From: Moniliella sp. 'wahieum'
Lineage: Eukaryota
Length of the DNA: 64,000 nt
Assembly: GCA_003971905.1 (NCBI GenBank)
Contig: RSEE01000025.1
Span: forward strand, 310,001 to 374,000
Direction: 5' to 3'
The notes under the pieces are model-generated. The model had not been told where the DNA came from. It did not search any database and was given only the letters and a program-made list of their open reading frames with translations. Positions 485-59,946 of the stretch are shown here, one piece after another (the first letter of the stretch is position 1; every line of letters begins with the position of its first letter). The translations under genes were made by a program, and so were the position numbers.

Positions 485-3031
485 GATGGGGCTGCTGAGG
501 AGGGAGGGAGATAGTGTGGGGGGGGTGAAGAGAAGGGGGTTCAGTGATGGTGGGGAGGGGGGTATTTAAATATTCTGGCAGGCTGGGAGCTTGTGAAGTT
601 ACACTGATTGGCCAACCCAATCGGGGCAAGCGGGATAGGGAGGGCAGCAGTGGGGTTGTCATTGGCCGTGTTCCACTCCCATTGGTCCCCCTGTACCGCT
701 CGGCCCACGCGATGAGCGCGATGAAATGAATGAGCGCGATGAGTCAATGGGCTGCCGGACGCAGGATACGAGATGTAAGATGCATGATGCACAATCGCTA
801 CTCGGCGGATGGGCACCTCCCAGATGCCCCCAGCGGCCGAGTGCCCGGCTGGATGTTGCGTTTGGAGTTCGAGGTGCGACGTGGCCGTCGCCGTGGTGTT
901 GGTCGCTCGTGTCCGCCGTCGTGGCAGCGCCCAGTGAGACGCGGCGGCCCACTAGCCGTCGCGCACCTGGTTTGACAAGCCCCGGCGGATCCGGCACACT
1001 GGCCATGTGCCTTCTCGTGCTGGCTCCACTGACCAAGCGTCACGCCACGCGTCATGCGTCATGCGTCGTACATCCCTTCGTCGTCACTCGCCACTCGCAG
1101 CGCGCCATTCAAGCGCCACGCTCTCAGGCTCTCAAGTTTCAAGCGTCGCTGTCGCCTGCCACCCATGGCCGCCCACCAGGGAATCAGCAGCCGCTCAGCG
1201 CGTCCGTCCAACCCGCCCTTTGCTCCGCCCCGGCGAGCGGCGGCATTATGCACACCGGCGGCTCCCACGCTCCCCAACCTTTGTTGCACCGATCCTCCCA
1301 ACTTCCGTCGGCTCCGCGCCACGCAACAGATCGCCACCAATCATTAATCAGATCCAGATTGCGCGTTGTCATCGACCATCATGCATCATGCATTGCATGC
1401 ATCCTTGATGCAGATGGACTCGAGTCCTAGCAAATGCCTCACGGTTCTCTGTTGTTCGCGATTTGCAATCCGGCCGAGAGGAGATGGTTTGGCGGCTTAA
1501 CGATTCACGATATTCACGACTATCGATTATCGACGATCAGCTAATAGTAACGTGTATCGGGTAACCTATGCATTAGATGACCTAAATGCTTAGTCGACGC
1601 AATGGTGCCAGCTCGACTCAAACGATCTTGGTGTGCCTGCCATCGCAAGTAGCCAGTTTTTCCTTCCAGCCGGTCCCATCCTGTCTTGGCTGCTGCTCTT
1701 ATTTTACTCAGTACTCATCCCAGCTCAGCGCTCATCGATCATCCCGCCTGTCGACCGACCCCACATTCGGGTCTTCTCCTATCTAATAGTACTCTCGAGA
1801 CGGTCTGGTACGTGGGCATCGATCTCTGCGATCTCCTTACCATTATTTTTGGCCATCCCACTGCTGGCAATTTTTGTATGGATCCCGAGAAACTTGACGC
1901 TTTCCTTCCCATTGTCCTTTCGGCCTCGGGTCGAACCAGCTCAATGTGCAGGGTTCTCATCGCCACACGGCCTTCGTACGCGGTACTAGTCCGCCACCAA
2001 TACACGGCCCTCGCCTTTCCCCCCCATAACATCAACGGGGGAGGAGACGCCCAGTAGATGTCATCTCACAGAGACTGTTGATAGTGCATTATATGCAGAC
2101 AGGAAAACAGGACCGAGGTGAGCGCCCGGGATACGAAACAGCCACAACAGAGGCTGTCATGTACCATTCTCGCGATAGGCTAGCCAGAGGGCACCATCCT
2201 GGGTATTACTGGTAGCACCAATAGCACTTCTTCCACCTGTAAGCAGCATCGATTGGGAAAAGCCTCGCCAAAATATGCCTGCACCACCTGTCGGTGACTG
2301 CGCCAAGCAAGTCGGAAGGGAGACAGGCAACGGCTAGCTCCATCTCATCCACTTTCGTCCTAGAGGTGCCCACTTTTTCATGCAAGTCTCGAGCTTCTAT
2401 CATGTGGCGGGGATACAAGGGGGAGGGGTGGGGAGCATGCCGTAGACATGTGTGCCCTGTGGGAAAGCGTTGTTGGCCATGCAAAGCACCCCGCTGTGTG
2501 CCCGGCTATTGGTCGCATTGCAACACGTGTGGGCAGAGATACTGGGGATCCTCCGTCGACGGTGCTACCCGCCGAGAGGTGGGATAGATGAGGACGGAAA
2601 TTCTGAAACGGAAGCTCCACGTCCTAATGCCTAATCGGCTTGGACGTTAGCACGGGGGCAGCGGTGGCGCCTGCGCGCCAGCCGGGCTGTCATGCGCCAC
2701 ATACGCACAGGGGCAGTGTGGCGTGCGTCGCGCCAGGCCCAGCCTGGCCCAGCGCAGGCGCCAGCTTCCAGCTTCCCGAGCAGGCAAGTCGGCTGGGCAT
2801 GCCATGTTGGGATGCAGGGGGCACGGCACAGGCCAAACGCCCCACTCGCCCTTCGGCTGCAGACCATCCCACCCAACGCCCCCTCCACCACCGCCGCTTC
2901 CACTTCCCCTGCCACCGCCACACCCACTCCCACCGCCACCGCCCCGTTGCGATGGTCGTACTGACGCCAGCCTGAACCGCCGCTCCCTCGCGCCGCCCAC
3001 AAAAAGTCGGTCCGCAGCCTGACGCGCGAGT

Positions 3032-5764
3032 ATGAGCAGCAGCATGGGCCCCAACCTCTGGCGCAGGACGAGGCGGCGGCCGCGCGGCACTCAATCCTCC
3101 TCAAGATCCACCGCCGCAAGCAGAGCCAGGAGAAGACCGAGCGTGAGTGGTCCGCCCAACAGCAGCTGCAGCTCTCCCCCCAAACCCCGCCCCAATGCGC
3201 CGACGACCACGAGCACCAAGACGAAGAGGGCGACCAACTATCTGACCTCCCCGGCATGACGCGCTCTGTGTCGCTCACTGTACCCGGTGTGCACGCAGCC
3301 TCTCCCGTGCTCCCTCTTCCCGCCACATCCATGACGCCCGCCGAGCGGCGTGCTCATTCCCGAATCCACTCCGTGCGCACTCGCGCAACCTCTCCGTCTT
3401 CTTTCCCCGCCCCGGATCTGAGGCCGAAGCCGAGGCCGACGCCGAGCGCGCCCGCGCTACTTATCTTGCTCCCGTTCACGCACGCACACCCTCCACAGCG
3501 CATGCGCGTACGCCAAGTATGTATCAGCCCCCGCTCGAAACGCCCTCACTTCTGGCACCCCCGCCCCGCGTTCTCAGTTGGGGCTGGGGACGGCTTCGGC
3601 GTATGGACCGTCTGGCCTGGCACGTCATTCCTCCTTGACCCTCTCCACCTCGGCCAATGCTCTAACCCCACCAGGAGGGGGCACGCATTGGAACGATCTT
3701 CCGCGTTCTGGTTCCTCAGATTCCACCACCCACACTGCTTCTTCCTCCCAGACCCGGCACAAACCTCACCCACACCGGGCTTCAGTCATGTACCAATTCG
3801 AGGCTACACCTCCATCCTCGTCACTGGGGTGCCCGGCAACAGCAATGGCGGCCAACATGCCCGGCTCATCGTATCCTACCCAAGCTCACGAGCACGACCA
3901 CCACGACCATAGCCACAGCCATGCTCATGTCCACACCCCAGAAAACGACGAGAGTCCTGCGATCCGCTTGATGCAAGCGGTCCCAACGGGTTGGTCCAAC
4001 CGCATTGTTCCCTTGCTGCGCGGGCCCGCAGGGTGGGCGGGCTGTGTTTGGTACGATTCATTTCCTTCTGGGGGGAGCGCTGTGGGTGCTGGGACAAACC
4101 CGAGACTCGCTCGCACTGGCCGGGCTGGGGTACCTGGTCGTGTTTGATGCGATGGGCATCTGGTCCGATGTGGTTGCCTACCTGTCCGAGGGACCTACCA
4201 CGCCACCTCCCGTGGTTGGAGTCGATGGTAAAGCACGAGCGAGCGCGTTGCTCCGGCCCTATGCCCGAACAAGGGACGAAACAGTGTGGCAATTTGCCCA
4301 AGTGGTTTATCTTTTGTTTGCGGGCGTGTATGTGATCAAAGAGTCGGTCGAACATGCGCTCGTGGCGGGTTCGACGGGCCACGATACCGCCGCCCTCGGT
4401 GGCGGGGAACACCATGTGACCCCCCATGCCGAGTCCGAGGTGGGTGTAGAATTGCCAACCAGTATGATTGCGCTCGCGATGGCCATGTGCAGCTTTGCGC
4501 TTTTGGTCTTGCGCAACCATGCTTCTCTCTTGGCCGCATCGGGAATGAGCACAGCTGCTGGAGGCTCCTTGACGGGGCAAGGCGCCAGTCATCGGCTCGG
4601 GCTCCGTCTTGGGCAGCGCCCCGGGCGCAGTGGTGGCTGCTCCCGTTCTAGCTTTGTTGGCCAACCCATTTGGAGCGATGGTGCTGTTCTTTTCAGCTTC
4701 GTTGTTGGTTGCTGGGCTGGCTATGCCCCAGGCGCAAGTAGCTGCGCTGGATAAGGTCCTGGCCCCTCTGGAAGCGGTGGTAATGCTCTCGATTGCCTCT
4801 CCGGCTGCCAAGCAGCTCGGGCTGGTTTTACTCCAGAGTCCGCCCCCGCCCACTGCGGGACCGTATGTGCAGCTGGTCAAGGCGCTCCAGCATCTGCAAG
4901 ACCATCCGCTTGTAGTGTCCATCCCTGCTCCCAAAGTGTGGCAGCTGAGTCCGCCGGCGGCGGGTGTGATGTCCGGGGCGGCAACGGGCAAGGGCGTGAT
5001 TGCGAGCTGGGCCGCCGCAAAGTGTACCCCCGGTCCATCCGTCGCTCGTTGCTCACGTTACTGTGTTTCTTCAGCCCGAGGCGAGCGTGAACGATGTGGC
5101 GGAAATTACCCAGTTGGCGTGGGAACGTTGTGCTCCAGCTGTGGGTGCGCTTTCGTTGCCCGGCCAGCAAGTTCCCGCTACCCCCGGCACTCGTCTTCGT
5201 GGCTCCCTCCGAGCAGGCGAGCTGCTGGTCTCTGTTTCGAGGTGGGGGGCAGTAGAGCAATTGCGAGACGAGCTGGGTGCCAGTGCGATGGATCATCATG
5301 GTAATTGCGGCCATGACCACGACCATAATCACGACCATAATCACGACCACAATCATGGCTATGATCACGGTCATGACCATGACCCTCAGTCCCACTCCCA
5401 TCCTCAATTTTGCGGGTTCGCCGGCCATGACCACGGCCATTTCCACCCCTCCCCTCGTACCAGCGGGCATGGCGCTGAGCAGGAGGTGCATGGGCATGAT
5501 CCATACACCCCCATCCCTTTGCACTCCTATACCCCTGGCACAGAACAGACTTACCACTCGCATCATGAGCCTGCTTCTGCCGCCTCGTCTGCACCTGGGC
5601 TGCACACGACCTCTCCCGCACCACACTCGCTTCAGGCTCATGCAACGCTCAGCCCTGCCTCCAATGCCCATGCTCCGGCCGGTGCGCCAAGTCCACGAAC
5701 CAGTGGGGTGGGGACCCGGAGGCACGCCCGCACCGAGACACAGATTGGAATGTCTTGGCTCTAA
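3032..5764 (+). CDS. Cation diffusion facilitator (zinc transporter), Zrg17-like; frameshifted
   Basis: TM segments FLLGGALWVLGQTRDSLALAGLGYLVVFDAMG and PYARTRDETVWQFAQVVYLLFAGVYVIKESVEHAL are typical of fungal Zrg17-type CDFs. His-rich tracts HEHDHHDHSHSHAH and HDHDHNHDHNHDHNH. Spread over several frames; start is uncertain. Confidence 0.7.
5311..5385 (+). repeat. Imperfect 6/12-bp coding repeat (GACCATAATCAC-like) encoding a His-Asp/Asn tract
   Basis: ccatgaccacgaccataatcacgaccataatcacgaccacaatcat is visible directly. Confidence 0.85.
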
Positions 5765-6602
5765 AAGCGAGGCTACCTACGTTTCATCATGCTTACTTGT
5801 GTTTCCACACAGAGCTGTTTTTATTATTGCCTTTGGGCAACGCCATCTTGATATCTATTGTAGAGACTGTCGTTTCTCCTCCTATCGGACGCTGGAGAGC
5901 TGGCAATGCACAAACAAAAACTCTGTCCTGGGGACCGTGGTAGGCCGTAGGAGGCGCAAGGCGCGGTTAGGGGGTACAGGTGATGGTATTCGTTGAGGGG
6001 CAGATTTGGGATGGCAGTGGGTGGTGGAAGAGTTAAAGCCGACGGCGATGTGGTCGATTAGTGTCCAGCGTGCCTGTCGATAGACGGTGAACCGGTCAAG
6101 CTTCAAGACCGCTTCCCACAGTCTTGTCTGGCGGAGTGGCGAGTGACGCTCTCAGGAGCTCCGATGCCACTGGGTTAGGAACGCAGGGCAAGAGAGGCTG
6201 TCGAAGCGGGGCATATTCCTATGCCTGTGGCTCTGGCTCGTCTGGCGCCTGCCTGTGCGTTGCACCGCGTGCGCCTGTGCCTGCCTGCCTTGCCCACCCC
6301 CTTGCCGCAGGCACCAGGCAGGAGACCCCGTGCAGCCACAGCGGCGAGTGGCGCAGGCCGATCATGCTGGTCACCGGCCATGCATCATGCATCCCACCAC
6401 AGGAGACGGCTGCATAGCTTTGCGCGCCCAGACACGGCGCTTGGGCCATATACCATCCGGCGCATCCACTCCGCCGGTGCTCGGCCGGCAACGCCTGCGC
6501 CGCCTGCTGCTCCACTTGCGGGTGCAGATGCGGTGCAGCACCACCCACGCGCCTGCTTTGTTTCTCCCTTTCCCTCCCGCGCCCATCCTGCCCGCCATCT
6601 GC

Positions 6603-9600
6603 ATGGCTGCCACCGCCCACGAGCCTGTGCGTCTGCGCACCCAGCTGCTCAACCTCAGCTGCGCACCCACCAGCCCGCTCCTCAGCCCCAGCCCCCCCTC
6701 CCGCCTCTGGCCCCTGCCTCTGGCCTCGCCCTCGCCCTCGCCCTCGCCCTCGCCCAGCATGCCTCCTACAACGGGCTCCAGCACCAGTCGCGAATCCTTT
6801 GCGTCTGCGCTGGCCCTCACCCCCGCCCCAAGCCCCGCATCCGCCCGCCCGTCCCACTTCTTTTCGCCCATGCCCTCGCCCTCACCCTCACCTTCGCCCG
6901 CAGCCCACACCACCCAACACCAAACCCGCCTCAACGCTCCTCGTATTTATCCTCCACAGCCCTTAGCCCGTCCCACCATCAACTGCCTCCCTCCTTTCCT
7001 TCCCCGGTCTCGGTCCCAATAGCAGCGCGTTACGCATACAACATCCCGCCGCTCTACTCTCACCCCTCGTCTTCAGCCGAGACTGGCGTTCCAGTCCCCC
7101 CGGTAGAGAATGCAGCCAAACCAGCGCCGGTCGCCCCGCTGCCCCTCCACCCCCGGTCTGGTCAGGGTTCGTGGCCTATCTTATCCTCGCAACCCCAGTC
7201 CGCTGGTGACGACAGTCTCCGCCTGGGTAGCTGCCCTGGCCAACATCGCCCGCATCGGTCCAAAACTAAAAGCCGGCGATTGAGGAAACACAAACGACAG
7301 GAGCAGGTCACCCCCCGAAAATGCCTGCGCCCACCAGCCAGCACGCCAGTGAAATACAGCCCACCGTTTTCCCATCCCTCCGCCGCCCCTCAGAAAACGC
7401 TTGCACGTATCCCACCTGCCATCCAGAACGTTCACCTGCTCGCCCAACATGCAACAGAGGCGGTGCGCGTTCTGTCTCGATGCCAAACTCGCCTACGGGC
7501 TCCACCCAGAAACTTGCCGCCGCCCATCATGAGGGGACCAAAAAGAGCACTCGTAACCTCATCCGTGCGCTTACGCGAAAAGGGAAGGCCTCATCCACCG
7601 CCACCATGGTATCTGGAAGAGTTGACAACCCAGTTCCCGGTGCGTTAAATTCTGTGGCTTTGGGGGTGATTTGACAACCCTGCTAACGCCTCTCTCACCC
7701 AGATTGTTCCCTCTTTCCTCCGAGCCTGTTACCAACCGCCGCTGGGTCCAATAGTGCAACGGAGAGTGCAACGGAGATGGTGGCCATCACGAGCAAAGAG
7801 TCCGTAAAGGACCAAACCTCTCCTCCAACAAATGCGTTGTCAAACAACGAATTAGCCACGGTCACACCCAAAAACCGTGCCCATAGAAATTCCCACGACC
7901 TCGCGCGCTGGGCCGGGTTGCGACTCATCTGATCAGACGCACCCATGTTGTCGATGCTGAACCGCATCAGCACGTCTCCTTGCCCCCTCCCCCTCTGAAG
8001 CAACTCCCACGGTAACCCCACCCAGCAGCACTGGCGCCATTCGTCGACTTCCTCCCACAGCCAGGTCTGGCCAGCGTGCCTCGCCCAAAAAACGGGGGTG
8101 TTCCAGGCGGCGTAAGAGCGTCTACTCGCTGCTGGACTTTGCCCGCCCAACCGTAGATGAATCGGGCGGGGACGGTTTGGTGGGGGGCGCAGAACCGGCG
8201 CCGTGCCGACGAAGGTCGGTCGGTGAACCTGGGACACCATCGTCCGCACGTCCGCGACCTCAGCGGAGACACACTCCCTCCAGCGGTCGCTCTCCAAGCC
8301 GAGGTGTGCAAGCACTCCATGCCTTGACTCGAGCTACCTCAACCACGCCTTCCGGCAGGCGCTCGGCAACGAGCGATAGGCAGGACGTCACCCAAAAACG
8401 CCCGTCCTCTTTTATTGTGACTTCTGCTCACCGTGTCCCTCGTCCTATGCCGATGACCGCCCCCTCAACGCCCAATCGTAATCCTAGGTTGAGTCTTCCT
8501 ACTCTTCTGAATATCTCCCCCTCAGGAGACCAGCTGAAGCGCCCCCAATCCGTCAGTGCAATCCATGCTCTGACCGGAGTAGACCCAGCTGTTAAAGCCC
8601 ATTCTACGCTTCTGCCCCCCGAGCCATCTGGCTTCCTCGTGGGTTCCTGGAAGAACTGCACCGGATACGGTCAGATGGGACAAGCGCTCTAGGTTTGACC
8701 TCGACCGAGCCGCTTCCTAGCACGCTTCCCTTGGCTGATAATAGGTCCGTATCACGGCCGTCCGGATTGGATTCATCCATCTTCTCATCCCGGTGGTATC
8801 CTGAGAACGCACAACGTGCCTCATCGGAGGCTGAAGCGCGGGACAGTAGTAGCCGGCTTCCGTCGGCGCCTGTTCCGACTGCAAAGTCTGTCCGCCCGCC
8901 TGTTCACAATCCCATTGCCAAGCCCTACACTTTCCCACTGGCCACGGTCACCTTACCCAACATGGGGAAGCATCACTCCTTGTCGGCCAGTCCGGCCACC
9001 GCTCTTCCCTTGCGGTCGCTGTCGTCCCCATTGAATGACACAAAGCCGCATCTCCAGCCCCTACAATGGCTAGTCTCGATCTCAGCCAAATATCAGACGA
9101 TCAAGCGTTTTTAGCCGTGTTGGAACGGATGAGAAGCTTGCATCGCGCCGCGGCGACGACATCAGTCTCGCCATCGGCTGTGTCGAGTGCTATGCTAGCT
9201 CGGAGCGAATCTACCAGGAGCGAATCGAGTCCCTCGCCTTCCAACACGACCGCCTCTACAGCCTGCTCTAACTTCTCCACTGCCGCCAGTCGAACTCTGT
9301 CGGACTCGATCCAGGCCATCCCCTGCTCTACGTCGATCGGCACACCGGGCGCAGCCGTTCCCATTCCTGATATTCCAACCAAGTACCTCACCGGAGGGCA
9401 CTCGCTCATGGTCCATACCGAACACCCTGCCCCAGCCACCAGGCCCGTTGGTTTGCGGCGCTCGAGCAGCATACGCGCGCCTTCCCCATCATCCTGGACC
9501 CCAGCTCCGTGTCCCATTTTGGTTCATGTAGGCCAGGCATCCGGCCAAAACCAACATGGAGGTCCGCCAGGAGGTGCGTTTGGGGACGATGGAGCGTGGC

Positions 9601-10519: not shown

Positions 10520-12256
10520 TTCCCGCAGATTGTTGGCCGTATCACGTCCACATCTCCCTCTCACTCACCGACCAAAGACGTATATACCCCCTGTCTTCCG
10601 CTCTCTTCTTTTTGTTACCTTCTTTGCGTCCCGCCCTGGCCCCACCAACACATATACCACACATATATTGTTTCGTACCCTTCCCCTTCGCCACACGAAT
10701 CCGCTAAAAAGGAGAAGGTTCGATTCTGCCGCTTTAGGGTTCTTGGTGTGTTTGCTGGTATCTCTTTGGCCGGACCACAGTGCACCGACTGGATATAGTA
10801 GCTGGTTCTTGTAGAGGCTTCCCATTCCTTTTTCAATGCCCAATCCTCCTACTCCATTCCCTTGGGCCACATCCCCACACGACGACTTGTCAGCATGACA
10901 CGTTCACTGGGTCACTCCGAGTCTTGGTTGGGGAGGCGGGGGGTGACTGTGGCCTTATGTGGGTAGCACGACCCAGCGAATTTTCTTGCCCAGAGAGGGA
11001 GGTGCGAGATGCTGTGCCGCGGTGGCACGTGAACGGACACGACGGATGCCTGCGGCGATGCGACTGACGGGCGGGGGGATCGGAGCGCTGAGCCCGGTAG
11101 AACGCTGTGCGTAACTTATTTTACCCCAGCCTGGCCAGGCCCCCGGGCGGACCCAAGGAGGAGAGTACGTGCCTAGACTGCCGCTCCCCCATCATGCATC
11201 ATGCACCATGCACCATGCATCACACTCGTCCTGGGCGGGGGGATCGGCCGTCGGCGGTGTTGCTCCGTCGGTGTGGGATGCAGATCGGTGGTGCGATGCA
11301 TGATGTGTATGGTGATCGATGATGGATGACCGGTGGCGCTGTATCACGTGCGTGTCACATGTGATGCCATGTATGTCACACGCCACAGCAGGCACAGCGG
11401 CCGCAGCCCCGTAAGCGCGTAAGCGGAAAACGCAGCTCCTTCTATTTGTCCACCCCACAGCCCCCATCTCGACCTAAGGCCTAAGGCCGAACCACAACTT
11501 GAAGCCAGACCGAGCCTCGGCCTCAGCGCCTCAGCGTTCAACCTCAGCACAGACACCACCCCGTGACACGCTTGAAAGCAACAATTAACGGTAATGACGT
11601 TACGCGTTATGCGTATAAAAATCCTGACACTGCGCCTTCTTCGGTTCTGGCGCGTGCCGTATATACAGCTGATGCAATCCATTGATACGGGTCACCGGTC
11701 TCACCGCCCCAGCGCCCACTATATATACCTGACGGTTCGGCGTTCGGCATCATGTTTCGCCAGCTGTGCCTCTGCCGGGGAACCCCCCTCTCCACAGATA
11801 CCAAAACGCCGCCGCATCCGCTGCCCCAGCACCGTCATCGTCATCCATCTTCTCACGTCCCGCAGCCGCATCTCAGCACATTTCCTACACACTTCCGACG
11901 GGCGGCACACATCACTGCCCGCCCGCCTTTTTTTCGCCCTCGCGTCGCACCAACTGCTGCGCTCCGACGATCGAGAATGGGTGTAGTGCAATCGAGCCAC
12001 CAATAAAAGGTGGTTGACTAGTGACTCCTGTGGCTTGACGTGTCCCCCCGAGGATCTCAGGTCTCTCAGGCGAAAGCATAACATCACACACTGCGTTTAC
12101 CCTGTACGTCGCACATACGGCCCAATCCCGCTTCTCGCTGTTTTGCTATCGCCGTTCTCTTCCTCCCTCCCCCCACCACGGCCTCATCAGTCGTATATGG
12201 TATTGACAGCTACCCAACGACACGATTCCTAGCATTTTCCTATCGACATCGCGCAT

Positions 12257-17382: not shown

Positions 17383-17424
17383 TCACATGTCACATGTCAC
17401 ATGTCACATGTCACATGTCACATG
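17383..17424. repeat. (TCACATG)x6 perfect heptamer tandem repeat
   Basis: Six exact copies counted. It lies between the divergent RMD5 and small membrane-protein genes, with further copies at about 17522-17546. Confidence 0.95.
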
Positions 17425-17790
17425 CACAGCATCACATGCACCGCATCACACCGCAAGGCGCTCGAAGAGGGGATGGGCAACACCGGCGCCACGCCGCTTG
17501 CCCCCCAGGCTGGAGGTTAGCTGTCACATGTCACAGGTCACACGTGATGCCATATTTAAGCGTTAGCACTTCATTCCGTTGCTCCGTAGTTGGTCTGGGA
17601 GAGCACAGCGCCAGTGTCCGAAAGCTGCCAAGCCGGGGATCTCCTTTGCCCGGGGCCTGTTCCTATTGAGTATTGCCTAGGCTGCATTGCAGTGCACCGA
17701 CCCGATCGCAGCAACGCTGCGCACCTCGGCCTTCATTTATATACGCCCCCCCCTCCCCATCTTCCACTTCCCCCTACCTTGTATTCTTCT

Positions 17791-40243: not shown

Positions 40244-40860
40244 TTAGGCCTTAAGTGCAGTCTCGAGAGCAGTGAGAACCTCAATCTCAATCTCGGCCTC
40301 GGCCTTGCTGATCTCGCTGCCCGAACCCGCAGCAACCTTCTGGCCTCTGCCAGGTTGGCCTTGACAGCCTGTCATAGCAACAGAAGATGAAACGGAGAAA
40401 GTGGTCAGTGACTCCGCTCGCAAGTCCAATAGGCTCGAATAACGCACCTCGGGAGAGAACGCGTCGAGCGGGAAGGCTCGACGGCGGTGATGTCGAGGGT
40501 GTTGTTGGGGTGCACGGCCAGGAAGCCCGAAGAGACAAAGTACTTTTCGCCAGCTGCGCCTTCCTTGGTAATCACCTCCACCACACCCGGCTTGAGCTGC
40601 TCGAACGTGGGAACGTGGTTGGACAGAATACCAATATCACCCGTAGCGGTGGACGCATTGACCTGGACCACCGTCTGCTCCGGAATGGCAGCCTCGTGGG
40701 GCAGGAGGAACTTGAGCTTGAGCTGGTCCGAGACCGCGGCTGCGTCGGCGTACCCGCGCGCAGCGAGCGCGAGGCGCGGGAGCGAAGCAGCGGGCGCAAC
40801 AGGGCGCACGGCGGCCCGGGCGGCGGGGAGGGCAGTGCGACGGAGAGCAGCGCCAATCAT
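40244..40860 (-). CDS. ATP16: Mitochondrial ATP synthase F1 delta subunit
   Basis: Presequence, then RGYADAA...LKLKFLLPHE...VVQVN...GDIGILSNHVPTFEQLKPGVVEV...KYFVSSGF...LDITAVE and KAEAEIEIEVLTALETALKA*. One intron at about 40368-40450. Confidence 0.96.
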
Positions 40861-41522: not shown

Positions 41523-42103
41523 AACATTCTGGGGCACCCATCGCCGGACGCCTTCTCCGCCCCTTTTCCGACGGACTTGCACATGAATGATCTTACCTAA
41601 AACGATGGATGCATGCTTGGACGGGTGCGTGGCCGGATGTGAGAAGCTGGGTTGGACGGAAGGAACTGACGTGATGTTCATCTTGCCGCTGGTTGTACAC
41701 CCAACCAACCCAACCTCCCATCAGCCATGCCTTCTCCAATGGTGCCTTTGGCTGTTCCCAATTTACACCAGACGCATGCACATCCGCTACGCATATTCAC
41801 CCTTGGTTACCTCTTCAGTTGGCCCGATTTGCGCTGTAGAGGAAAGGTGGGACAGATAGGTGTTTTCTAGTTTCCGTCTGTGGCCACTAAGAGGCGTAGG
41901 GCGAACGGTCGTACTTAATCTGCCGACTGAAGAAAGCGAGTTCAGTATCATATACCACCTGCATAACCGGTAACCCAGCAACATATCATGGTTCAACGAT
42001 GAAGTTCATCTCGCTGCTGTCAATGAAGCCGAAGCGCTGGGCAATGCCACTGCAAATAACCAAGTGCGGGTTTTTCCCTCAAGACTAGTTCCTCGCCAGA
42101 AAA

Positions 42104-42175
42104 GGGCGGATAGCTCAGGGGTAGAGCGCTTGCTTAGCATGCATGAGGTCCGGGGTTCAATTCCCTGTTCGTCCA
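42104..42175 (+). tRNA. tRNA-Ala (anticodon AGC), intronless
   Basis: GGGCGGA/TTCGTCC acceptor stem with G3:U70, D-arm TAGCTCAGGGGTAGAGC, anticodon loop TTAGCAT, T-loop GGTTCAATTCC, followed by a T6 Pol III terminator at 42179-42184. Confidence 0.96.
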
Positions 42176-42661
42176 AACTTTTTTGGTGGTTGGGCACGCT
42201 CAGCCTAGAAAATAGCTACTGTTCTAGCTCTGATATTCGCCGACAGCTCCAGTTCGACTGGCCGTCCCTGTTCAGATGATGTAACAGCAGTCCATTTGAC
42301 AAAATGACGTTGAGCAAAGCCATGAACGCCGCCGTACAGATATGGGGCACCAACTGCCTCAGGGCGGAGAGGGCAGCGAGGGTGGTGAACATGAGGTGAC
42401 GCGAAAAAAGCGGAACAATAACATGATGCATGGTGCATGATGTGCGTATCCAACATAGTGCGCCAGAGGGGGGCCTCGTCTCTTTTTTCCCGGAAAAGGA
42501 ACGGCAAATGGTAGGCAAGCAAATAGAGAATCCCAAAGCCAAGGAGAAAGAAGGATCCGCACTGGCTCGAAACCAAGGAAAGGGGAGAGGGGTAACAAGA
42601 GGAGAGGGCAGAGGGAGAAAGGAGTGGAGAGGAAAGGAGATAAGGGAAATAAAGGAAAGGT

Positions 42662-43779
42662 TCATGCCACAATGCCGACGCCACTTGACCCCAGACGAAG
42701 AAATCACGTAGAGGCTTGCGCCAGTCAAGAGAGGCACCGTCAAGTTATCATCCAATCCGCCAATGTCCACAGCCTCGCTCAATGCCGCGGAGAGAGCCAG
42801 TGAGAAGCGCGAGCAAGGGTAGTGGCATTGCCGGCACCGTCGCCTTGACCGTCCACGAGCTGGCAGGGGCACCGAGTGAGGCAAAGCCCGGCTTGGTTGG
42901 TACCTCGTTCGCGGGCAAGAGCGAGTAGGGCGGAGAGAGCCACCAAGCACGACCGAAATCCCGTGCGCCCAACCCCCCCACCCAGTGCCCAGCGGCCCTG
43001 GTGCGTTGGCGGTACCCAGTACCGCAGGACGGCCCGGGGCCCAGGTCAGCCCGTCCCCACGCTCGCCTGCGGCGGCCAGGCCGGTGCCCCAAAAGCCAAG
43101 TGCAATCACGATGCCCATCACAGCAGCAGCTAGGGAGCCGGCGAGCGACTTGCGTTCGGCAAAAGGAGGCGACGGCATCTTGGGCGTGTACCGCCCCCAG
43201 AGCCGCCCGGCCACCGAGGCCGCCGTGTCACACCAGCTCAGAACAAAGATGCTGACGCCGGCCACATCGGCCGGGAGAAAGTGAAGAACGGAAAGGCAGC
43301 CAATCAGATACCACAGTACCCCATTCACTTGTTTCTTTCGCTTTCCCGCATCAGAGGACCCAGCACTGCCTCGTACGCGCGCTCAAACCAGGGGGCATTC
43401 AGACGCAGAGCGTCGGTGGAGGCCACGAGCGCAAGGAAGGCGGCGAGAGCAGCGTTGATCGCGCCGACAGGCGTGCCATGCAGATGGAGTGCCAGAACAA
43501 GAGGCGCAATGGAGCTGTGGAACAATTTGCGCGGAACCTCCCAGCTCTTGGCAGCGGGTTGAGGGGTGTGGTGGAGGTGGAGGTGGAGGTGGAGGTGGAG
43601 GTGGAGGTGGAGGTGGAGGTGGAGGTGGAGGTGGAGGTGGAGGTGGAGGTGGTGGAGGTGGAGGTGGCTCCGGTGGGAGTAACGGCAGGAACAGAGACGC
43701 GTTCCTTCGTGGGCGCAGAAGTGCCGTTGGCGTGTCGAGGCACAGCCACGCCGTTAGGCCGGATGGCAGTGGAGGACAT
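42662..43779 (-). CDS. DGK1: CTP-dependent diacylglycerol kinase; frameshifted
   Basis: EVPRKLFHSSI, LGPLMRESERNKVNGVLWYLIG, LSWCDTAASVAGRLWG, RKSLAGS and GLDDNLTVPL. The 3' end is approximate. Confidence 0.93.
43570..43667. repeat. (GGTGGA)n hexamer microsatellite, about 16 units with one interruption, inside DGK1 (poly Thr-Ser)
   Basis: Directly visible; read as TSTSTS... in the DGK1 frame. Confidence 0.95.
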
Positions 43780-44851
43780 GGCAGGCAGCGCAACGAATGG
43801 GCGGTGGGGCAAAGACAAGGATCTGCATTCCTTCGGGCTGCCGTTGTCCGCCCGGTTAAGCTTGAGGCAACGAATGAATGTGTCTGCGCGCGTGGGCGCG
43901 CCTGTGATTTGTTCTGTTCAATCGCAGCTTGAAGCGCCTCAAGCAAAATTATCGAGTAGGATTAGGATTAATGACGTGTGACTGCCCCCCCGCGCCTCGG
44001 CAGCCTCGGGCCTTGGCACTTGCCCCGCGGGCCAGACGCGCGGCGCGTGATTAACGGCTAGGGTTAGGCGCTCCGCATTTTGTGCGGGATGGAGACGCGT
44101 TGGCGGGACATGCAACCGATCATCCCGCCATAGGATCTCTCGCGGTCATCGATTATCGATTATCGTCGATGTTACCAGGTTCTGCCCAGCCCAAGGCAGC
44201 ATGGCTTTTGACCGACAGGCGGAGGCTCTGCTGGGATTTTGATCTCCGATTCCATCGTCTCTCCAATAGCTCTCTGATCTTTCCTCTTTTGTCCTTCTCT
44301 CTCCCGGACATGAGACGCAGAGCCACGCGATGCGAGAGATATCGACAGCTCCAGTTTGTCTTTGCTTCACCTTGCTGTATTGAAGGAGAAGAGAGAGGGA
44401 TTCGAAGAATCTGTGGGTCCACACTCTCGCGGACCCAACACAGTCTTTGAGGCAATACTATACAGACGAAAGATCAACGAGCATGGGGGCGGAAGCCTCA
44501 TCATATTGCCCCGCGGTGCGTAAGGAAGACAATGCATAGTAGTATAAAGTCGGTATAGAAACAGCCCCATCGAGGAGAGCATGGTAAACCGACGCAATTA
44601 AGCATATTGATTGTGGTACGCGAGGTTACAGCGAGTATACGGCATGCGTAGGGCCTCCTTTGGCCTTGCACGCGTAGCCGTGCACGGGTGGGACATGTCC
44701 CACGGGCCCAGGGGCATGACTGAAAGAACGTACAGTGGCAGGAGTAGATGCACAGCAAAAATGGCAGGTCGACACAAGGACATCTAGAGTGAGAAGCGAA
44801 AAGAGCGAGGATTGTGAAACGAAGAAGAAAAGCAAGAGGGGAAGAGAAAGA

Positions 44852-47637: not shown

Positions 47638-49341
47638 GGCGCGGGAGATGCGGGGGCGGAGGGAAGCGGAGGGGGGGCGGAGGCGGAAGAGAAGCAAAGG
47701 GGGTGCAGCAAAGACGAGGGCAGGAGGGGGGTGAGGAGGTGGGAGGTGGAGGCAGGTGTGCGTGCCTGTCGCGACGGACTTGGGGTCGGGGGTGTGATCT
47801 GGATCATGTGATGCCGTGCGTAATTTGTCCCGGAGGGCTGGCATGGGGCACAGGGGGAGTGTGGGCGTGACGCGTCCAGCTAGAAGGGTATCCAATATCC
47901 ACCTGCCAACATGAGCGCCTCAGCCTCAGCGGCTCAGTACTCAGACGGAGTACTGAGACTCAGTCCTAGTAGGCTGTAGCAGGCCGTAGCAGCCACAACA
48001 CTCCCTCGCAAGCGCACACCATACCAGTCCCCATCACCCTCCTGGTCCTTCCTCGCTTGAGTAAGTCACTGGTTCCTTGTTGCTGCTTCGTCGCTGTCCT
48101 AGTCACTAGTGGCAGTACCTAGCCACACATCACCCCAGTCACCGCTGAGGTCACCATTGTCAACGTTGTCATGTTCAGTACGTTCAACGTGTTCAACACG
48201 TTCAACACGCCACCGGCAATGTATGGATCGGGGATGCCTGATGGATGATTAATGGCATGTGACATGTTTCATGCGTATGTCACCTGCCCCGTACCGAGGT
48301 CTCATCTTGGTTGCCAAGCCTGGAGTTGGCCTAGGTGGGTCTAGGTTGGCCAGGGTTGCCCTCCGCTGCAAGAACCAAGTGAGGCCCAATCTTATGTCTC
48401 CCACTGCCTCCCACTGCCTCTCAGATCTCACTGGCCTCCCGCCATCGCCATCCCTGTCCGACGCCACCCAACCAACAACGGTGCAAGGCACGCGTCGTGA
48501 AGCATCACGTGATGCTTTGAATAGGACACCCCAAGCGCGCCACCCGCGTCGCACTTCACGTGACGCGTGTTGGAGCTCGACAACCTTGTTAGAGAACGCT
48601 TCTTGGGTTCGTGTGTGCATGTTGTCAAAGAGGACAAGATCGACAGAGAGAAGAGAGAGAAAAGGTGTTGGATCGATTCCACCAGAGGAGCCCGTTAAGG
48701 GCAGAACATAGGGCAGAGCCGGTAGAACAGCACGATGCGCGATGCGCGATCAGCTGCGTGCATGATGCATGATGGCGCTGACACATGTGCTTGGTGGTTG
48801 TCTCTCTCTCGTTTTGCAGCTCCCTTTTTTGCACGTCAGTTGCTGCCACCACCAGCCAAAATCCTGTTGCGCGCCGGCCTTAGTCACTTTGTGCAGTGGA
48901 ACTAGATCCTGTAGGAAGCCAAGCCGCCCTTTCCATCGTCGGATACCGCTCATTTCCCTTGCATGTGCATGATCGGCGACCTCCAAGCCGTCTGTCTCTA
49001 TATGTCCCGATTTTGGGGTTATTCGGGTACCCAGTGTTTCTCTCTGACAGGCATCTGGTCGGCGGTTGAGATGTTGATCTAGGGCGCCACAACGCAAGCG
49101 AACGAGGGGTACGACAGTTTGCCATTTGCATTCTACAGAGCAACGCAAGTGCCGTGCGGAGCAGGGTGATTAGGGGAGCGGAGCAGTTCCAGAGGGAAGC
49201 AACGTCTCTTGGACGATCAGAGCCCAAGGGGGGAGAAAAAGAGAGAGAGGAGAAATAAAGCGGGGGAGGAGATAGCCCATCTGACAAGGGCCCCAAGCTA
49301 CGTGTCCATTGCAAGAGACAGTACTGCTGTGTCGTCTAACC

Positions 49342-51437: not shown

Positions 51438-52435
51438 GGGGGCAGAGGTGGTGGAGAAGAGGCGGACGAGAACGCGGGGCGCAGGGGAACAGGCGGCGGG
51501 TGGGGCGCGCACCGAGTACTGAGTTGGTGAGGGAGGCGGAGAGGTGCTGAAAGCAAATGCTGCGTACCGCCAGCAAGGCCGGTGGACGTTGAACGATGAA
51601 CGTGCGGTGAATATTGAAAATGACCCCGAAGCAGCCCCACCGCCCACAGCGCCAGTGCCCGTGTGGCCGCCGGTTACATCATCGCGTGAATGGGGCAGGT
51701 GGGGTGGAGTCTGGCACAGCACTGCCCTGCGCCGCCACCACACCCTGAGAGTGCGGGGAGGGTCCGGATCCTTCTACTGCGCGGCACATACGACACTTCA
51801 GCTTCATGATTCACCCACAGCTAGCAACTGGCGCACTCCCCCAAGCCATGTGCGGTTGGATCGCCACGAGATGCGGACAAGTTTCTCGGCCACCTTACTT
51901 GGTACGCTGCTAGCTGTTGCAGATAATAGCTTGCGCAAAACCCCAAACGCGGGCACTGAAGAGAGGGGCACCGACATCATTGGATTTGTCGAGTGTGTCT
52001 ACAGAATACACACCAACACAGATTCACAAGGGACAGAAAGGAAAGCATCATTGTAAGAAGAAGAGCGCGGACTTGACGGCGACAGGGACAGTTGCCAGGC
52101 AGGCAACGCACACACACATTATTACTGCTGTGCGATAACATCGTAGCGAGTACAAAGAAAATGTCATGAATCGGAATTCACAAACGGGGGACGGCAAAGT
52201 ATTGTTCAGATGGTATACACGGGGGGGAACGATGGTGGAAAAACGGAGAGATGAACAACTCCGACTTCAAGATCGCTGCACACACGCTAAAAAGGGCAGA
52301 GGGTTATAAGGATGGTAAACTGTCCATGACGAATTAATGGGCGATCCTACCCATCCATCCGCATGTGTCGATATTGACTTGCAGTTGAGTACACCAACCC
52401 GCTTGCTGGGGTCAGCGATAATCGATAAGGGTCAA

Positions 52436-53555: not shown

Positions 53556-54334
53556 GATGTGGCGATGGACCTAGGGCGCGGGGACGAGGGTGGAGGCTGG
53601 GGCGGGGGCGGGGGGAAGGGACTGCTGGTGCTGGTGCGGACGAGAGGGTGCACGAGGGGAATGGAGCGGCCAGAGCACATGTGCACGGCAGCTGCTCAAG
53701 GCCTAAATACGGCGGGGCCATCTGATCGCACCGCCCCGCTGCTGCATGGCAGCGGATGCGCACTGCAGCGCACTGCCGGGCACTGCCCCCGCAGCATGCA
53801 TCAGCAGCGTCACGCGTCACCAGCTCACCCGCCATCGAGCCATCCTGAGGCCTCCTGAGGCCCTGAGGCCTGAGGCTGAGGCCTGGGCCTGACCACTCCA
53901 GCCGTGCCCGCACAACCAGCAGGATTGCATCGGCAGGCGTCGGCCTGCGTCGGCTGTGCCCCAAGTCGGCGGGGCGTGCCGGGATGTGCGGGAGCTGCTC
54001 GGCAATCCAGGCACTCCCAGCCGCTCGCCCGACCTCTCGCTCGTCGCGGGGGTTGTGAAGGTTCGGTATCGACGTAACAACATGCTAGGGTCCTCAGGTA
54101 CTGCGTTCAGTACGTTGAGTACTTCAAGCTTCAAGCTATACTCAGTGAGCTCAACCATACCCTAGTCGGTTTCTCCAGCACGAACACACAACCTGGGCCG
54201 TTCCAGCCTGCTGGGCTGGCCTGCCGCGCCCTGAGGCCCAGGCTGGCCCCGGCTGCCCCAGGTCGCGCAGAAGGCCGAAATGACGTCACCGTGTCGCATC
54301 CCTTCAGCGTCCCACGATCTACCATACCTCAGCC

Positions 54335-54361
54335 CATGATGCATGATGCATGATGCATGAT
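54335..54361. repeat. (CATGATG) heptamer tandem repeat, about 4 copies
   Basis: catgatgcatgatgcatgatgcatgat. Confidence 0.9.
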
Positions 54362-54889
54362 TAAATGATCAAATTGATGATCGATTGTCACTGATCGCGC
54401 ATACATGATGCATGATGTCCGTCCTGGGTGCCTGTCGGTGCGGCGCCGCCTGCGCGGGATACGGCAGGCGGCGCCGCTCCGCAGCCATCGCTCCTCCACA
54501 CCGCAGCGACCATCCTCCAATCCATTCCCTCTTGCCGCGGCCCACCACAACCCGTGGAGGACAGCAGCCACCCCTCGGCTCGGGGCAGCCGCAAGCCACG
54601 TCCCTGTCCACATCGGCAACCACGGCGTAGGGGCCAAGGTCTCATAGTGCATTTGCGTAGCGGTGCCTGGATCGCAGTCAACGGCTGCGCCGAGCGTGTT
54701 GGAAGCCGACCTCGGCCGTGAGCGGCAGGATTTCGGCACGGCGTCTCGTTGGCCGTCAGCATTGCCACCATCCGGAAACACCCGCTCGTGGTCTGGCCCT
54801 TGGCGCGAGGTACTTTGATCGCGTTGCGCATTCGCGTCGCCCACCGTATTTCCCCCAGCACACATCTTGCGCGAGAACATAACGCTCCC

Positions 54890-56410: not shown

Positions 56411-58538
56411 TTCCTGATCTCCCACCACCTGGCCACTCCGGTACCTAGGTTTTGGTGTGGAGTGAGCTCGAAAGCTGGAAAAAAACCGTGGGTACCGTGT
56501 CCAGTTGGACGGGTGGGGAAAATGTGACGCCGTACTGTTGTGGTCTGTATAATGGTGCCGGTAGCCCAGGCCCGGCTGCGTCCTTTCGGTGCATTCCTTC
56601 CAATACTCCTTCCTGTGGAAGGCAGGCATATTCTCTAGCCTCTATAGCTCATATCAACACAATACACCATCAACTATCTGCACTCTGAATAGGGGATGAA
56701 GAGGCGTCGTGGGGCCCCAAGCGGTTACAATACTACTACTAGCACTCAGCAATATGGTGCATGCCATTAATTTTCTGTGAGAACACGAGGAGCAACAGTA
56801 TGATAGCTGAGATGGAGAGGGTCGGCTACATTGCAACCACCATGCTTGCTGCTCCGCGGGAGGTTGTTCGGAGGCAGAGCTGACATGGTCTAGGGATCAA
56901 TCAACGCCCTGGCAGGTGCCTTCACCTGAAGTAGGAAGATAGTTTGTTAAGGTCGGGCGCCGCACACTCTGTCCGTACTGATCACGGTGCATGGCAGCCC
57001 GGCTCAAACTGGTTTAGGCCCACAGAGGAGCCAACTTGTGACGGGGTTGCTGGCATCGCAGGGGGAAGACCTTCCTGACCATCGAAGGCAAGACTCTTCA
57101 CGCGTCACGGAGACTTATTTGAATGCGTTTCAGATCCAAAGTCGAAGGAACACTCTGGCTTGGACGTAGGAGGGTCGGGAACAGTAGTGTTTTTTAACAG
57201 GAGATGGAGATGGGGAAAAGGATGAGGATCATATTCATCGAGTGGAAAGAGAGCGAGGTATATATGCCTCGGAGAAGAAGAGAACATGCGAGCTAAATCA
57301 CACTGAGGGAAAGAGGGAGCACAATCCAAAAAAGGGGGAAAACAGGGTCTAGAACAAATCAAGGGGGCCAGACAACTTGGTGACGAGACGTGATCAAGTG
57401 AGTCTAATCCCGACACTTTTCTACTCAGGCAGAGCCTGGCAGCATCTCAAAAGAGGAGGTGTCCATGTTAGGGACTGGACGTGAAGGCGGGAGGCTCCGA
57501 GGAGGGGCAGGGAACAGTCTAATCCCACCCACAGGCAAAAGAACATCCCGGAATGAGTCATTTCCTTTTTTAGGAGTAGAGCCATCACACGCGTTTTGCA
57601 GCTCTCTTCTGCCATCACTGGGGACTAAGAAGAAAAAGGCTCAAAAGGAGAAGAGCAGTCAGAAGTAAGGTGTAGAGAAACATGCAATGAAGGAAGAGAG
57701 CGCTAAAGACGGCGAATGTTCCTCTCTTGTTTGTTCCCAGGCGCCTGTCTGGCCTGGGATTGTTTACGTTGTCGCGATCATTTTGAGGGATAGAATCCTG
57801 GCAACGAAGGTGATCTCGTACGCATACCATTCCAAATACAAGTCAGTCCCGTTAGACTATAGTACTAGCGAGAGGGTGTCAACAGCGCAGTAGGCCACTT
57901 ATCCTTTTGCTATAAAAGCGGATATCGTCCTGCGGCCGCCTAGGGTCGCGAAGGGTCACATCCATACGATGAGTGGTGCTCACATGTTGTGTCCAGTCCT
58001 TTTGGAAGCACTCCTCGTCCGATGATGCGTCCGTAAACGGACTATCCGTCAACCTCAGCGCCGTTATATTGAAAGCACGTCTGGGGCTTGGTTTTAGCCT
58101 TTCCTTCGCTATAAGTCCTACATCCTGTTTATATACCGCAGTCCTGATCAGCTCTTCACTAAATCACAGCAGCCACAGCAGCCCTGTGTCAAAAAGGTTT
58201 GGTATAGCTACTGTAGTCCTTATCTCGACTATTCAGTGTTATATACCTTTCGATGACCAACCTCATTTTCCCCGACCAACCGTTGTCTATTATATACACC
58301 TTTTTGGTCACCACAGGCATCCCATGCACATTCTCCCTTCACCTTTGCTGCCCTCTAGTAACGCTTACAAATTTGCGACTCACGTCGGTTACACTGCAAA
58401 AGCCGTGTGGTCTCGTCGAGGCTGCAGCAGCGCTTTTATTTTACGCTTCAATTAAGACTTCGTCATCTGAATCCGCCTAGGGCATTGGTCTAACGATAAG
58501 GCGGCGACATTTCCCCAGAGAACCTGCAAGATAACCGG

Positions 58539-58559
58539 GGTAACCGGTAACCGGTAACC
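58539..58559. repeat. (GGTAACC)x3 heptamer tandem repeat
   Basis: ggtaaccggtaaccggtaacc. Confidence 0.9.
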
Positions 58560-58925
58560 AATCAGAAGTCAGATCTCAGAGCTAGTCAGATCTAGATCTA
58601 ATATCTGAAGAGGGCGGTGGTCTGGTCGGGTGCATGTCAGGAATGCAACATGTTGATGCCGCGAATGACGTATGCGGCGCGAGTGAGGCCGGTGAGGCCT
58701 GTGACGCGCGTGACGGGTGATGTATGTGGCATGCGAACACGTGACATGCGAGACCTGGCCCTGCGCGCCCTGAGCCTGAGCGCTGAGCCGCTGAGCCTCA
58801 GGCCAGAAGCTCGATCCCTTGCAAGCCGCAGGAACAGGCTCGTACAGTGCTGGCGAACCCTGTGGCTTGTTTGAACATTGCGCTGGCGGTCATTGTGAAA
58901 CCCCGCCGAGGCCGAGAGTTTCAAC

Positions 58926-58953
58926 AGTGACTAGTGACTAGTGACTAGTGACT
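58926..58953. repeat. (AGTGACT)x4 heptamer tandem repeat
   Basis: agtgactagtgactagtgactagtgact. Confidence 0.92.
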
Positions 58954-59946
58954 CCATGCCTCGACAGCATGTGTTGCTCATTGCATGTTGCATGTGCTGC
59001 AGGGATATGTTTTTTTTTTTTAATTTTTTGCGGAAGGGTCCCGTATTAGGGTTAGACCACAGAGTCCTCCACTGGCCAACCTCAAAGTTGAGGACTACGT
59101 CACGCGTCATGCATCATGCATCATGAGAGGCACCATGCATCATGCATCGGTGCAAGCAGTCCAGTGCGAAATTCGAAGCGCTTCGAACATTTGTCTCGCC
59201 GCAGCCGCGGCCCCTCGTTGTCTCAAGTGCGGAGCTTTTGACTGGGGCAATCGTTTCACTGCAAGTGACAGCCAGCGATTAGTGACTGTGACTCTGACTA
59301 GTGACCTAGTGACCGGGGTGACCTGAGTGACCGACCGGTGGCCTGGCCAGTTTTTGATTGACTAGGCACTTGGTCATAGGCTCTGCTCAGTCACGGGCCA
59401 GTCAGGCATGATGCATGATGCATGAGCCTCAGCGAGCAGCTGAGCGCGGCTGCGCGAGCGGTGAGCCGCTGAGCCTGGCCGTCGGCACCTCTCCCGTCGG
59501 CACCTCCCCACAATCATTAATCACCCTCCGCGCGGGGCTGTATACGCCGAACACGCGATGCCAACAGAAGACAGCCTGTATGAGCATGACGAATGCATGA
59601 TGCACGATGCATGGTTGCTGTCCTGGATTCATTGGGGTGACCCTGTGACGCGTGACTGACATTCGCGCTGGCACTGACGCTGACTAGCTGGCCAGTGATT
59701 AAGTGACTCCCAGGTACCTAGCAGCAACAAACTATTGCCAACAGACAGCACAGCCACCCAATCGCCGTTGTCGTTGGGAGGAGGGCAGTGTCGGTTGCTG
59801 CGCTTGCACCTGTATCATACCGCGTACTGAACCTCCGCTATCGGCTTCATCAACACTTGGCTGCGGACCACCACCATCGGGCTCTACCATCCCCCCAGAA
59901 ACTCTCCCCACATCGATCTCCTCCGTTCTCCGTTACATTCAGCAAA

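Follow-up and report, generated by a model that had tools for sequence, protein, structure and literature searches.

Period-7 T-N-A palindrome arrays in intergenic DNA of Moniliella sp. 'wahieum' and their possible origin in transposon excision

Tandem heptamers of many different sequences recur between the genes of a 64-kb stretch of the Moniliella sp. 'wahieum' genome (assembly GCA_003971905.1, contig RSEE01000025.1, positions 310,001 to 374,000), hereafter called the window, which is ~58% G+C and contains no N. A first reading made from the letters alone (the sequence-only reading) had noticed that each unit can be parsed as a TNA triplet followed by a self-complementary tetramer. The genes that surround these arrays are of an ordinary kind: the intron-split open frames of the window hold eukaryotic-type housekeeping domains (Pfam), among them glycerol-3-phosphate dehydrogenase, a Ran-type GTPase, histone deacetylase, TspO, a TBC RabGAP, ribosomal protein L29, ATP synthase delta, KRE6/SKN1, a SacI-domain phosphatase, RPA43 and two protein kinases. 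For one kinase of the window, a protein search gave Tilletia proteins as the nearest named relatives (50-52% identity), with unnamed proteins reaching 64-65%, a result that, from this one search, would place the source among basidiomycete fungi, probably in or near Ustilaginomycotina.

The sequences quoted in the sequence-only reading are present at all 13 of its 13 sites, the one at 53844-53892 being an imperfect mix of 6-10 bp units. Tandem Repeats Finder (TRF) reported 114 rows, among which period 7 was the commonest (31 of the 114, counted from the table). Perfect arrays, defined as at least two copies, were compared with 50 dinucleotide shuffles: 36 arrays of period 7 were observed versus 3.7 (standard deviation 1.8) in the shuffles, 56 versus 13.5 for period 6, 11 versus 1.0 for period 8 and 4 versus 0.2 for period 9. 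Similar ratios are thus found for periods 8 and 9, and what sets the arrays apart is not period 7 as such, which is not uniquely enriched by ratio, but the symmetry rule. In 22 of the 36 perfect period-7 arrays the unit is a 6-bp palindrome plus one nucleotide, and 21 of these 22 are of the A....T type. An A....T palindrome plus N, a TNA plus a 4-bp palindrome (pal4) and the odd palindrome xyTNAy'x' are equivalent forms of the same unit, and only 448 of the 16384 heptamers (2.7%) fit this rule by chance.

Counted directly, TNA-pal4-TNA with the same N in both triplets occurs 64 times. The expectation was 2.5 with 30 shuffles, 2.2 with 40 shuffles, 2.2 (maximum 7) when shuffling was performed inside 100-, 200- or 500-bp blocks, and 1.8 (maximum 5) in order-3 Markov simulations. 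The excess over shuffled controls (64 versus ~2) that the first reading had led one to expect is thus real, and the whole-window and block dinucleotide shuffles together with the Markov simulation rule out chance or composition as its cause. Only palindromic spacers are concerned: in the window, TNA separated by a non-palindromic 4-mer is not enriched (35 versus 33), nor are palindromic spacers of 2 or 6 bp between TNAs (4 versus 7.7 and 1 versus 0.7), and no other triplet rises above ~4-fold except rotations within the same arrays. The 64 matches group into 51 loci, a density of ~1 locus per 1.25 kb; the pattern had been recognised at the outset, but many of the short loci had been missed and the unit had been taken as a whole heptamer, which, as described below, it is not. 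Two further repeat classes were seen. TNA...TNA with a 3-nt spacing (period 6) occurs 69 times versus 35.6, about twice the expectation and without a palindrome signal, an excess that probably reflects codon periodicity. At 1049-1067, 2761-2776 and 58981-58995, perfect period-7 arrays are one base off the rule in each copy (TCA+TGCG, TCC+AGCT and TTG+CATG, respectively) and look like mutated units amplified via slippage.

In its elementary form the unit is 12 bases long (a 12-mer) and reads TNAab·b'a'·TNAab, or the reverse complement of this, where primes mark complementary bases. It amounts to a net gain of 7 bp, composed of a 5-bp direct copy (the TNA and two flank bases) and a 2-nt inverted copy of those two bases. 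The strict 12-mer pattern is found at 36 loci versus 0.24 expected; with one constraint violated it is found at 29 loci versus 7.7, and with two violated no excess is detectable (86 versus 85). Perfect period-7 runs peak at 12 bp (17 of the 51 loci) and not at 10 or 14 bp (13 bp, 7 loci; 14 bp, 3; 11 bp, 5; 10 bp, 3), the fall from 12 through 13 to 14 bp being as expected if 12-mers are lengthened by chance. In 15 of the 17 12-mers both extra bases stand on the same side, with 9 loci in one orientation and 6 in the other, and the multi-unit arrays measure 19-21, 27-28 and 42 bp, that is, 12 + 7k plus 0-2. On the plus strand, the base adjoining the palindrome is A in 46 cases, C in 2, G in none and T in 1, and T-N precedes this A in 39 of the 46 cases.

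In 64 cases both triplets of a unit carry the same N; in 2 the second N is complementary to the first, and in 6 it is some other base. An N that is repeated and rarely complemented indicates a duplication rather than a dyad-symmetric protein site. Across loci, N is C in 23, G in 20, A in 5 and T in 3, which matches all TNA sites of the window (chi-square p = 0.45). Thirteen of the 16 possible 4-bp palindromes are used, and the choice of 'ab' follows the frequencies of the dinucleotides next to TNA. At four compound loci, one TNA is common to two different palindromes: in three of them (1723-1743, 31389-31409 and 59098-59125) each palindrome repeats, in inverted and in direct form, the outer flank on the side where it stands, and the fourth (62010-62028) obeys this flank rule on one side only. 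Taken together, the repeated and unconstrained N, the unconstrained palindromes and the inverted dinucleotide derived from the flank point to a mutational event rather than to a selected binding site. The suggestion of a site-directed mutational process at T-N-A is upheld in that the pattern is neither chance nor ordinary slippage. Slippage nevertheless acts on the arrays too, as shown by 11190-11223, where a mutated unit (CCA for TCA) is present in two copies.

Junctions of other kinds were sought in the window. TNATNA, in which both overhangs would be lost, occurs 35 times versus 37.8, no junction with both kept was found, and 1-nt or 3-nt arms are not enriched. Variable spacers are seen at 53844-53892 and 59282-59333, where the TGA spacers of 3-8 nt may represent varied rejoining; the second of these is possibly a much-revisited site. 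Deletion-type scars are invisible to the pattern search. A target logo extending beyond TNA is not robust, the arrays being counted on both strands and dominated by those of the ATGCAT type.

The loci avoid coding DNA. The Pfam-supported coding stretches (5,674 bp, 8.9% of the window) hold none of the 51 loci, in keeping with the initial description of the arrays as intergenic, and 3 of the 51 lie inside the 36% of the window called coding by a rough codon-usage model, which was trained on those same Pfam stretches and had its recall measured on them. The loci are concentrated in the spaces between genes, several of them where the neighbouring genes diverge; one cluster (24.8-25.5 kb) lies between the deacetylase and TspO genes and another (58.5-59.7 kb, ~10 loci) upstream of a kinase gene. 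The individual loci are collected in Table 1.

Table 1. Heptamer loci of the window. Rows come from the 51-locus TNA-pal4-TNA list (locus), the perfect period-7 array list (perfect) or Tandem Repeats Finder (TRF).
Positions	Sequence or feature	Source
1339-1350	AA TCA TTAA TCA (12-mer)	locus
1377-1393	CA TCA TGCA TCA TGCA T; degenerate continuation to ~1403	TRF, locus
1705-1717	TAC TCA GTAC TCA (13-mer)	locus
1723-1743	compound GC TCA GCGC TCA TCGA TCA TC; putative ancestral site GCTCATC	locus
6096-6107	TCA AGCT TCA AG (12-mer)	locus
6379-6393	CA TGCA TCA TGCA TC; unit ATGCAT+C, only one complete TNA	perfect
11190-11223	CA TCA TGCA TCA TGCA, then mutated unit (CCA TGCA) twice	locus, perfect
11313-11323	TGA TCGA TGA T	locus
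11473-11488	CC TAA GGCC TAA GGCC (16-mer; single event does not explain)	locus
11598-11609	CG TTA CGCG TTA (12-mer)	locus
12015-12026	TGA CTAG TGA CT (12-mer)	locus
17383-17424	(TCA CATG) x6, longest array, 42 bp = 12 + 4x7 + 2	TRF, locus
17522-17535	TG TCA CATG TCA CA	locus
24775-24784	TGA GATC TGA (bare 10-mer; could be chance)	locus
25009-25020	TGA CCGG TGA CC (12-mer)	locus
25030-25048	CT TCA AGCT TCA AGCT TCA (19 = 12 + 7)	locus
25358-25371	ATCATTG x2 (unit TGATCA+T); sole palindromic period-7 array outside the A....T type	perfect
25383-25402	A TGA TCGA TGA TCGA TGA TC	locus
25491-25503	GCT TGA AGCT TGA	locus
27079-27089	TCA TTAA TCA T (predicted coding; possibly chance)	locus, codon model
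31389-31409	compound AG TGA CTAG TGA CGCG TGA CG; putative ancestral site AGTGACG	locus
36292-36304	CC TAA GGCC TAA G	locus
37167-37193	TGA CCGG TGA C, then GA TGA TCGA TGA TCG; two adjacent loci	locus
40244-40253	TTA GGCC TTA (bare 10-mer; predicted coding)	locus, codon model
41964-41975	TAA CCGG TAA CC (12-mer)	locus
42422-42442	CATGATG x3, one mismatch (decayed array)	TRF, 12-mer search
44148-44165	ATCGA TTA TCGA TTA TCG	locus
47933-47944	C TCA GTAC TCA G	locus
48419-48430	TC TCA GATC TCA (12-mer)	locus
48759-48774	TGCA TGA TGCA TGA TG (16-mer)	locus
51608-51618	TGA ATAT TGA A	locus
52416-52428	CGA TAA TCGA TAA	locus
53807-53820	GCG TCA CGCG TCA C	locus
53844-53892	TGA+GGCC units, variable spacers (unit lengths 10, 8, 7, 6, 7, 6); perfect core 53862-53876	TRF, locus
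54122-54137	CT TCA AGCT TCA AGCT (16-mer)	locus
54335-54361	CA TGA TGCA TGA TGCA TGA TGCA TGA T	locus
54404-54417	CA TGA TGCA TGA TG	locus
57098-57109	TCA CGCG TCA CG (12-mer)	locus
58539-58559	GG TAA CCGG TAA CCGG TAA CC	locus
58569-58580	TCA GATC TCA GA (12-mer)	locus
58776-58788	C TGA GCGC TGA GC	locus
58926-58953	AG TGA CTAG TGA CTAG TGA CTAG TGA CT	locus
59098-59125	compound CG TCA CGCG TCA TGCA TCA TGCA TCA TG; putative ancestral site CGTCATG	locus
59134-59148	CA TGCA TCA TGCA TC	perfect
59282-59333	GTGAC-word run: TGA + spacers 3, 3, 4, 5, 6, 6, 8 nt; includes perfect locus 59295-59305	TRF, locus
59406-59425	GCA TGA TGCA TGA TGCA TGA	locus
59512-59523	AA TCA TTAA TCA (12-mer)	locus
59645-59656	G TGA CGCG TGA C	locus
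62010-62028	TCA GGCC TCA CTAG TCA CT; right half obeys flank rule, left half not	locus
62143-62154	TCA TTAA TCA TT (12-mer)	locus

Several other sequence features adjoin these arrays. Clusters of the words CTGAGC/GCTCAG (odd palindrome GCTGAGC), with spacings of 6, 8 and 9 bp, lie next to heptamer arrays at 58754-58800 and 59425-59475 and are mirrored by an inverted pair at 47917-47944. Runs of GTGAC words, dense but irregularly spaced, at 59240-59340 and 59630-59710 may stem from many visits to one TGA site, or may form a true regulatory cluster upstream of the kinase gene that lies at ~60.2 kb. A T-rich tract (T12 AA T6, 59010-59030), with a group of heptamer arrays on either side, stands in intergenic surroundings that are otherwise G+C-rich. 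Elsewhere in the window, the top-scoring tandem repeat is (GGTGGA)n at 43570-43667 (16.8 copies, 93% match), which lies within long open frames on both strands and does not fold as a single strand. A 12/24-bp repeat, CACGACCATAAT, at 5308-5384 would read His-Asp-His-Asn on the plus strand; it adjoins a weak match to the cation-efflux (CDF) domain (3972-4751) and is possibly the histidine-rich loop of a metal transporter. The hexamer repeats CCTCGC and TCGCCC (6703-6911) lie inside a Pro/Ser/Ala-rich open frame (6179-7645) without Pfam match.

On the simplest reading, which we prefer although we find the balance for and against it to be even, the heptamers may be scars left by the excision of a cut-and-paste element, one that duplicates 7 bp of target around a central TNA and has since moved on. 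Each heptamer would then record one break-and-rejoin event at a nnTNAnn site. A transposon duplicating 7 bp of target, l2l1-T-N-A-a-b, would insert and later excise; each flank, bearing one copy of the 7-mer, would be sealed as a perfect hairpin by the chemistry of RAG/Transib, hAT and MULE; and a host nuclease would nick the hairpins 2 nt (or 3 nt) beyond the tip, the nick 3 nt out giving the identical sequence because A pairs with T. The hairpin-opening enzyme Artemis typically cuts 2 nt 3' of the tip. Nicking would leave 4-nt self-complementary 3' overhangs, abb'a' on one side and l1'l2'l2l1 on the other. End joining would attach one overhang to the other flank, at the latter's recessed 5' end, with the second overhang clipped off, to yield l2l1-TNA-ab-b'a'-TNA-ab or its mirror image, with a total length that stays at 2 x 7 bp and with the 6-bp palindrome A-ab-b'a'-T created by the joining. 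Arrays would grow by repeat visits and by ordinary slippage, each step adding 7 bp since the scar restores a perfect target, b'a'TNAab.

As both ends would carry the duplicated target and pass via hairpins, the scar period would equal the duplication length, here 7. The hairpin scheme would account for the sharp 12-mer, its two orientations, the compound scars, the A....T palindromes, the identical N's and the growth by 7, and the junctions do carry what a footprint of this kind should leave, namely two TNA-containing copies of the target and palindromic nucleotides copied from the flank. The element's choice of target could be what fixes the T and A; so could a hairpin-opening nuclease that prefers to cut on the 5' side of a T lying two bases from the tip. 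We propose that frameshifting scars are lost from exons and therefore accumulate between genes. Every hop would leave a scar, so that scars could greatly outnumber element copies even where only a few elements, if very mobile, are at work.

A number of results weigh against excision scars as the origin of the arrays. Pairs of terminal inverted repeats (TIRs) with a flanking duplication, be it 7 bp centred on T.A or a 3-bp TNA, do not exceed chance in the window, no dispersed repeat was found in it, and no transposase domain was detected by Pfam in 277 of its 288 open reading frames of at least 100 amino acids. The junction is too uniform, none of the tested alternatives described above being enriched, whereas experimental hAT scars are heterogeneous, with 28 types in 128 events according to PMC5873905. 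The palindrome is even, whereas the classical hAT scars described in the same source are odd and centred on one complemented base; an even palindrome is what a hairpin formed exactly at the border would give. The simple scheme does not produce eight of the loci, which measure 15-18 bp and four of which are 16-mers of the form pal4-TNA-pal4-TNA-ab. The 'before' state is reconstructed, and the alternative may be a 9-bp insertion of non-flank origin. To our knowledge, no family has been documented with a nnTNAnn target. We hold it rather doubtful that the source is undescribed, either a new cut-and-paste element or superfamily branch that would target nnTNAnn, duplicate 7 bp and leave perfect flank hairpins resolved into one fixed junction, or a transposase-derived nuclease kept by the host and breaking promoter TNAs again and again. 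No description of TNA-palindrome heptamers, or of transposon scars stacked into fungal intergenic arrays, was found in a literature search that left subscription journals largely outside.

The absence of any element or transposase found in the 64-kb window would suit a transposon-independent origin, in which a host nuclease (perhaps domesticated) or a repair pathway cuts TNA in open promoter chromatin and produces a hairpin-type junction, for instance by joining between sister chromatids. The very uniform product and the strong clustering of the loci in a few intergenic zones (~10 loci at 58.5-59.7 kb) also speak for such an activity. However, one cut cannot give both ends the same 7 bp, for which the duplication made by a prior insertion is a simple and known route, and the literature search gave no known nuclease that acts in this way. 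We regard this origin as unlikely.

Hairpin-assisted replication slippage, by which self-complementary heptamers would expand preferentially as the slipped strand folds, is in our view improbable. Long arrays do fold as single strands (-4 to -10.6 kcal/mol), and the duplicated mutated unit at 11190-11223 is of the kind that slippage produces. However, the z-scores of these folds are modest (-2.25 to +0.79), and slippage predicts neither the sharp 12-mers, nor the restriction to A....T palindromes (46 versus 0-2 for other outer pairs), nor the restriction to period 7.

Elements of the PIF/Harbinger group typically duplicate TWA, and the sequence-only reading had proposed their footprints as one candidate process. 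Scars of PIF/Harbinger or CACTA type, in which each TIR leaves 2 nt beside a 3-bp TNA duplication, would indeed fit an odd-palindrome target such as TNA, and the two terminal dinucleotides would yield TNA-ab-b'a'-TNA. The data speak strongly the other way and make this origin very improbable: N is not restricted to W and is C or G in 43 of the 51 loci, TNATNA is unenriched, and the scar period is 7. In addition, it is the adjacent flank that the palindrome matches, and not the fixed ends of an element, as seen from the extra 'ab' in 15 of the 17 12-mers and in the compound arrays, and 13 palindromes at background dinucleotide frequency would require at least 13 families. The other mechanism put forward at that stage, a staggered cut followed by fill-in, can give only direct copies and never the observed 2-nt inverted copy.

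We give hardly any credence to the degenerate symmetric protein-binding grammar of the sequence-only reading, by which dimeric transcription factors would bind the loci and selection would maintain the arrays: their intergenic and partly divergent-promoter position would suit it, but the two N's are identical rather than complementary (64 versus 2) and the identity of the palindrome is unconstrained, 13 of the 16 being near their background frequency, even if the arrays could have been co-opted later as binding sites. A sequencing or assembly artefact can be set aside almost entirely, as it would neither depend on flanking bases nor avoid coding DNA.

Four simpler schemes were also considered and rejected. 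A simple 7-bp duplication of a pre-existing odd palindrome predicts 14-mers, whereas sharp 12-mers are seen. A 5-bp duplication with a symmetric target predicts period 5, which is unenriched. A 3-bp duplication with hairpins predicts TNATN'A palindromes, and neither TCATGA (11 versus 15.8) nor TGATCA (18 versus 15.8) bears this out. Double cleavage by topoisomerase I at T|N on both strands, reasoned through on paper, predicts a complemented N and non-palindromic spacers, neither of which is seen.

If transposon excision, or a nuclease activity of the kind discussed above, is the source of the arrays, one such activity would mark the intergenic DNA of a compact fungal genome with scars that far outnumber elements, and would be the origin of a tandem-repeat family, an answer to the question of how some microsatellites arise. 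Scars in promoters shift spacing by 7-bp steps and are thus a plausible source of expression variation; a new element or a domesticated nuclease would act as an intrinsic source of promoter-length variation in 7-bp units and would give rise to a whole class of microsatellites. The fixed junction informs on hairpin opening and joining in this organism, and the rule is simple enough for the screening of any genome.

The closest known systems are those in which excision passes via hairpins on the flanks. As described in PMC5499845, such hairpins are made by hAT, Transib, MULE and RAG, and are opened, probably by host Artemis-like enzymes, before end joining. In haploid Candida albicans and in yeast, Ac/Ds scars consist of deletions plus palindromic P-nucleotides (PMC5873905). 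Like the footprints of hAT (Ac/Ds), Transib and MULE and like V(D)J coding joints, the loci described here keep both copies of the target duplication and have a short piece of flank copied in inverted orientation at the junction, as P-nucleotide joints do; a total of twice the duplication is a further point in common, as is repair by end joining, which PMC5873905 describes for C. albicans Ac/Ds and PMC5499845 for the whole group. Unlike those footprints, the loci of the window show a 7-bp duplication centred on TNA and an even palindrome, consist, among the junctions tested, of essentially one product rather than a spectrum, and are dense and stacked into tandem arrays with no element found in the window. 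Classical hAT elements make an 8-bp duplication at the target nTnnnnAn; here, the period is 7, T and A are at positions 3 and 5, and the palindrome is even.

Target duplications of 7 bp have been described in basidiomycetes for 'hAT7' of rust fungi and Kyakuja of Laccaria, and 3-bp duplications for canonical Harbinger (PMC12730594). The likeness to hAT7 and Kyakuja is one of duplication length (here taken from the scar period), and hAT7 belongs to a hairpin-forming superfamily. No sequence homologous to them was found in the window, and they are not known to have been reported from Ustilaginomycotina. The odd-palindrome target T-N-A recalls PIF/Harbinger and the related IS5 group, in which the duplication is 3 bp, whereas here it is 7 bp and N is unconstrained. 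Head-to-tail repetition, with evidence of slippage in at least one array (11190-11223), is shared with micro- and minisatellites, from which the heptamers differ by a strict rule on the unit sequence (21 of the 36 perfect period-7 arrays) and by a non-integer 12-bp seed. Set against all of these systems, hairpin chemistry is the familiar part of the scheme, whereas the target, the fixed junction, the density and the build-up of arrays are unfamiliar.

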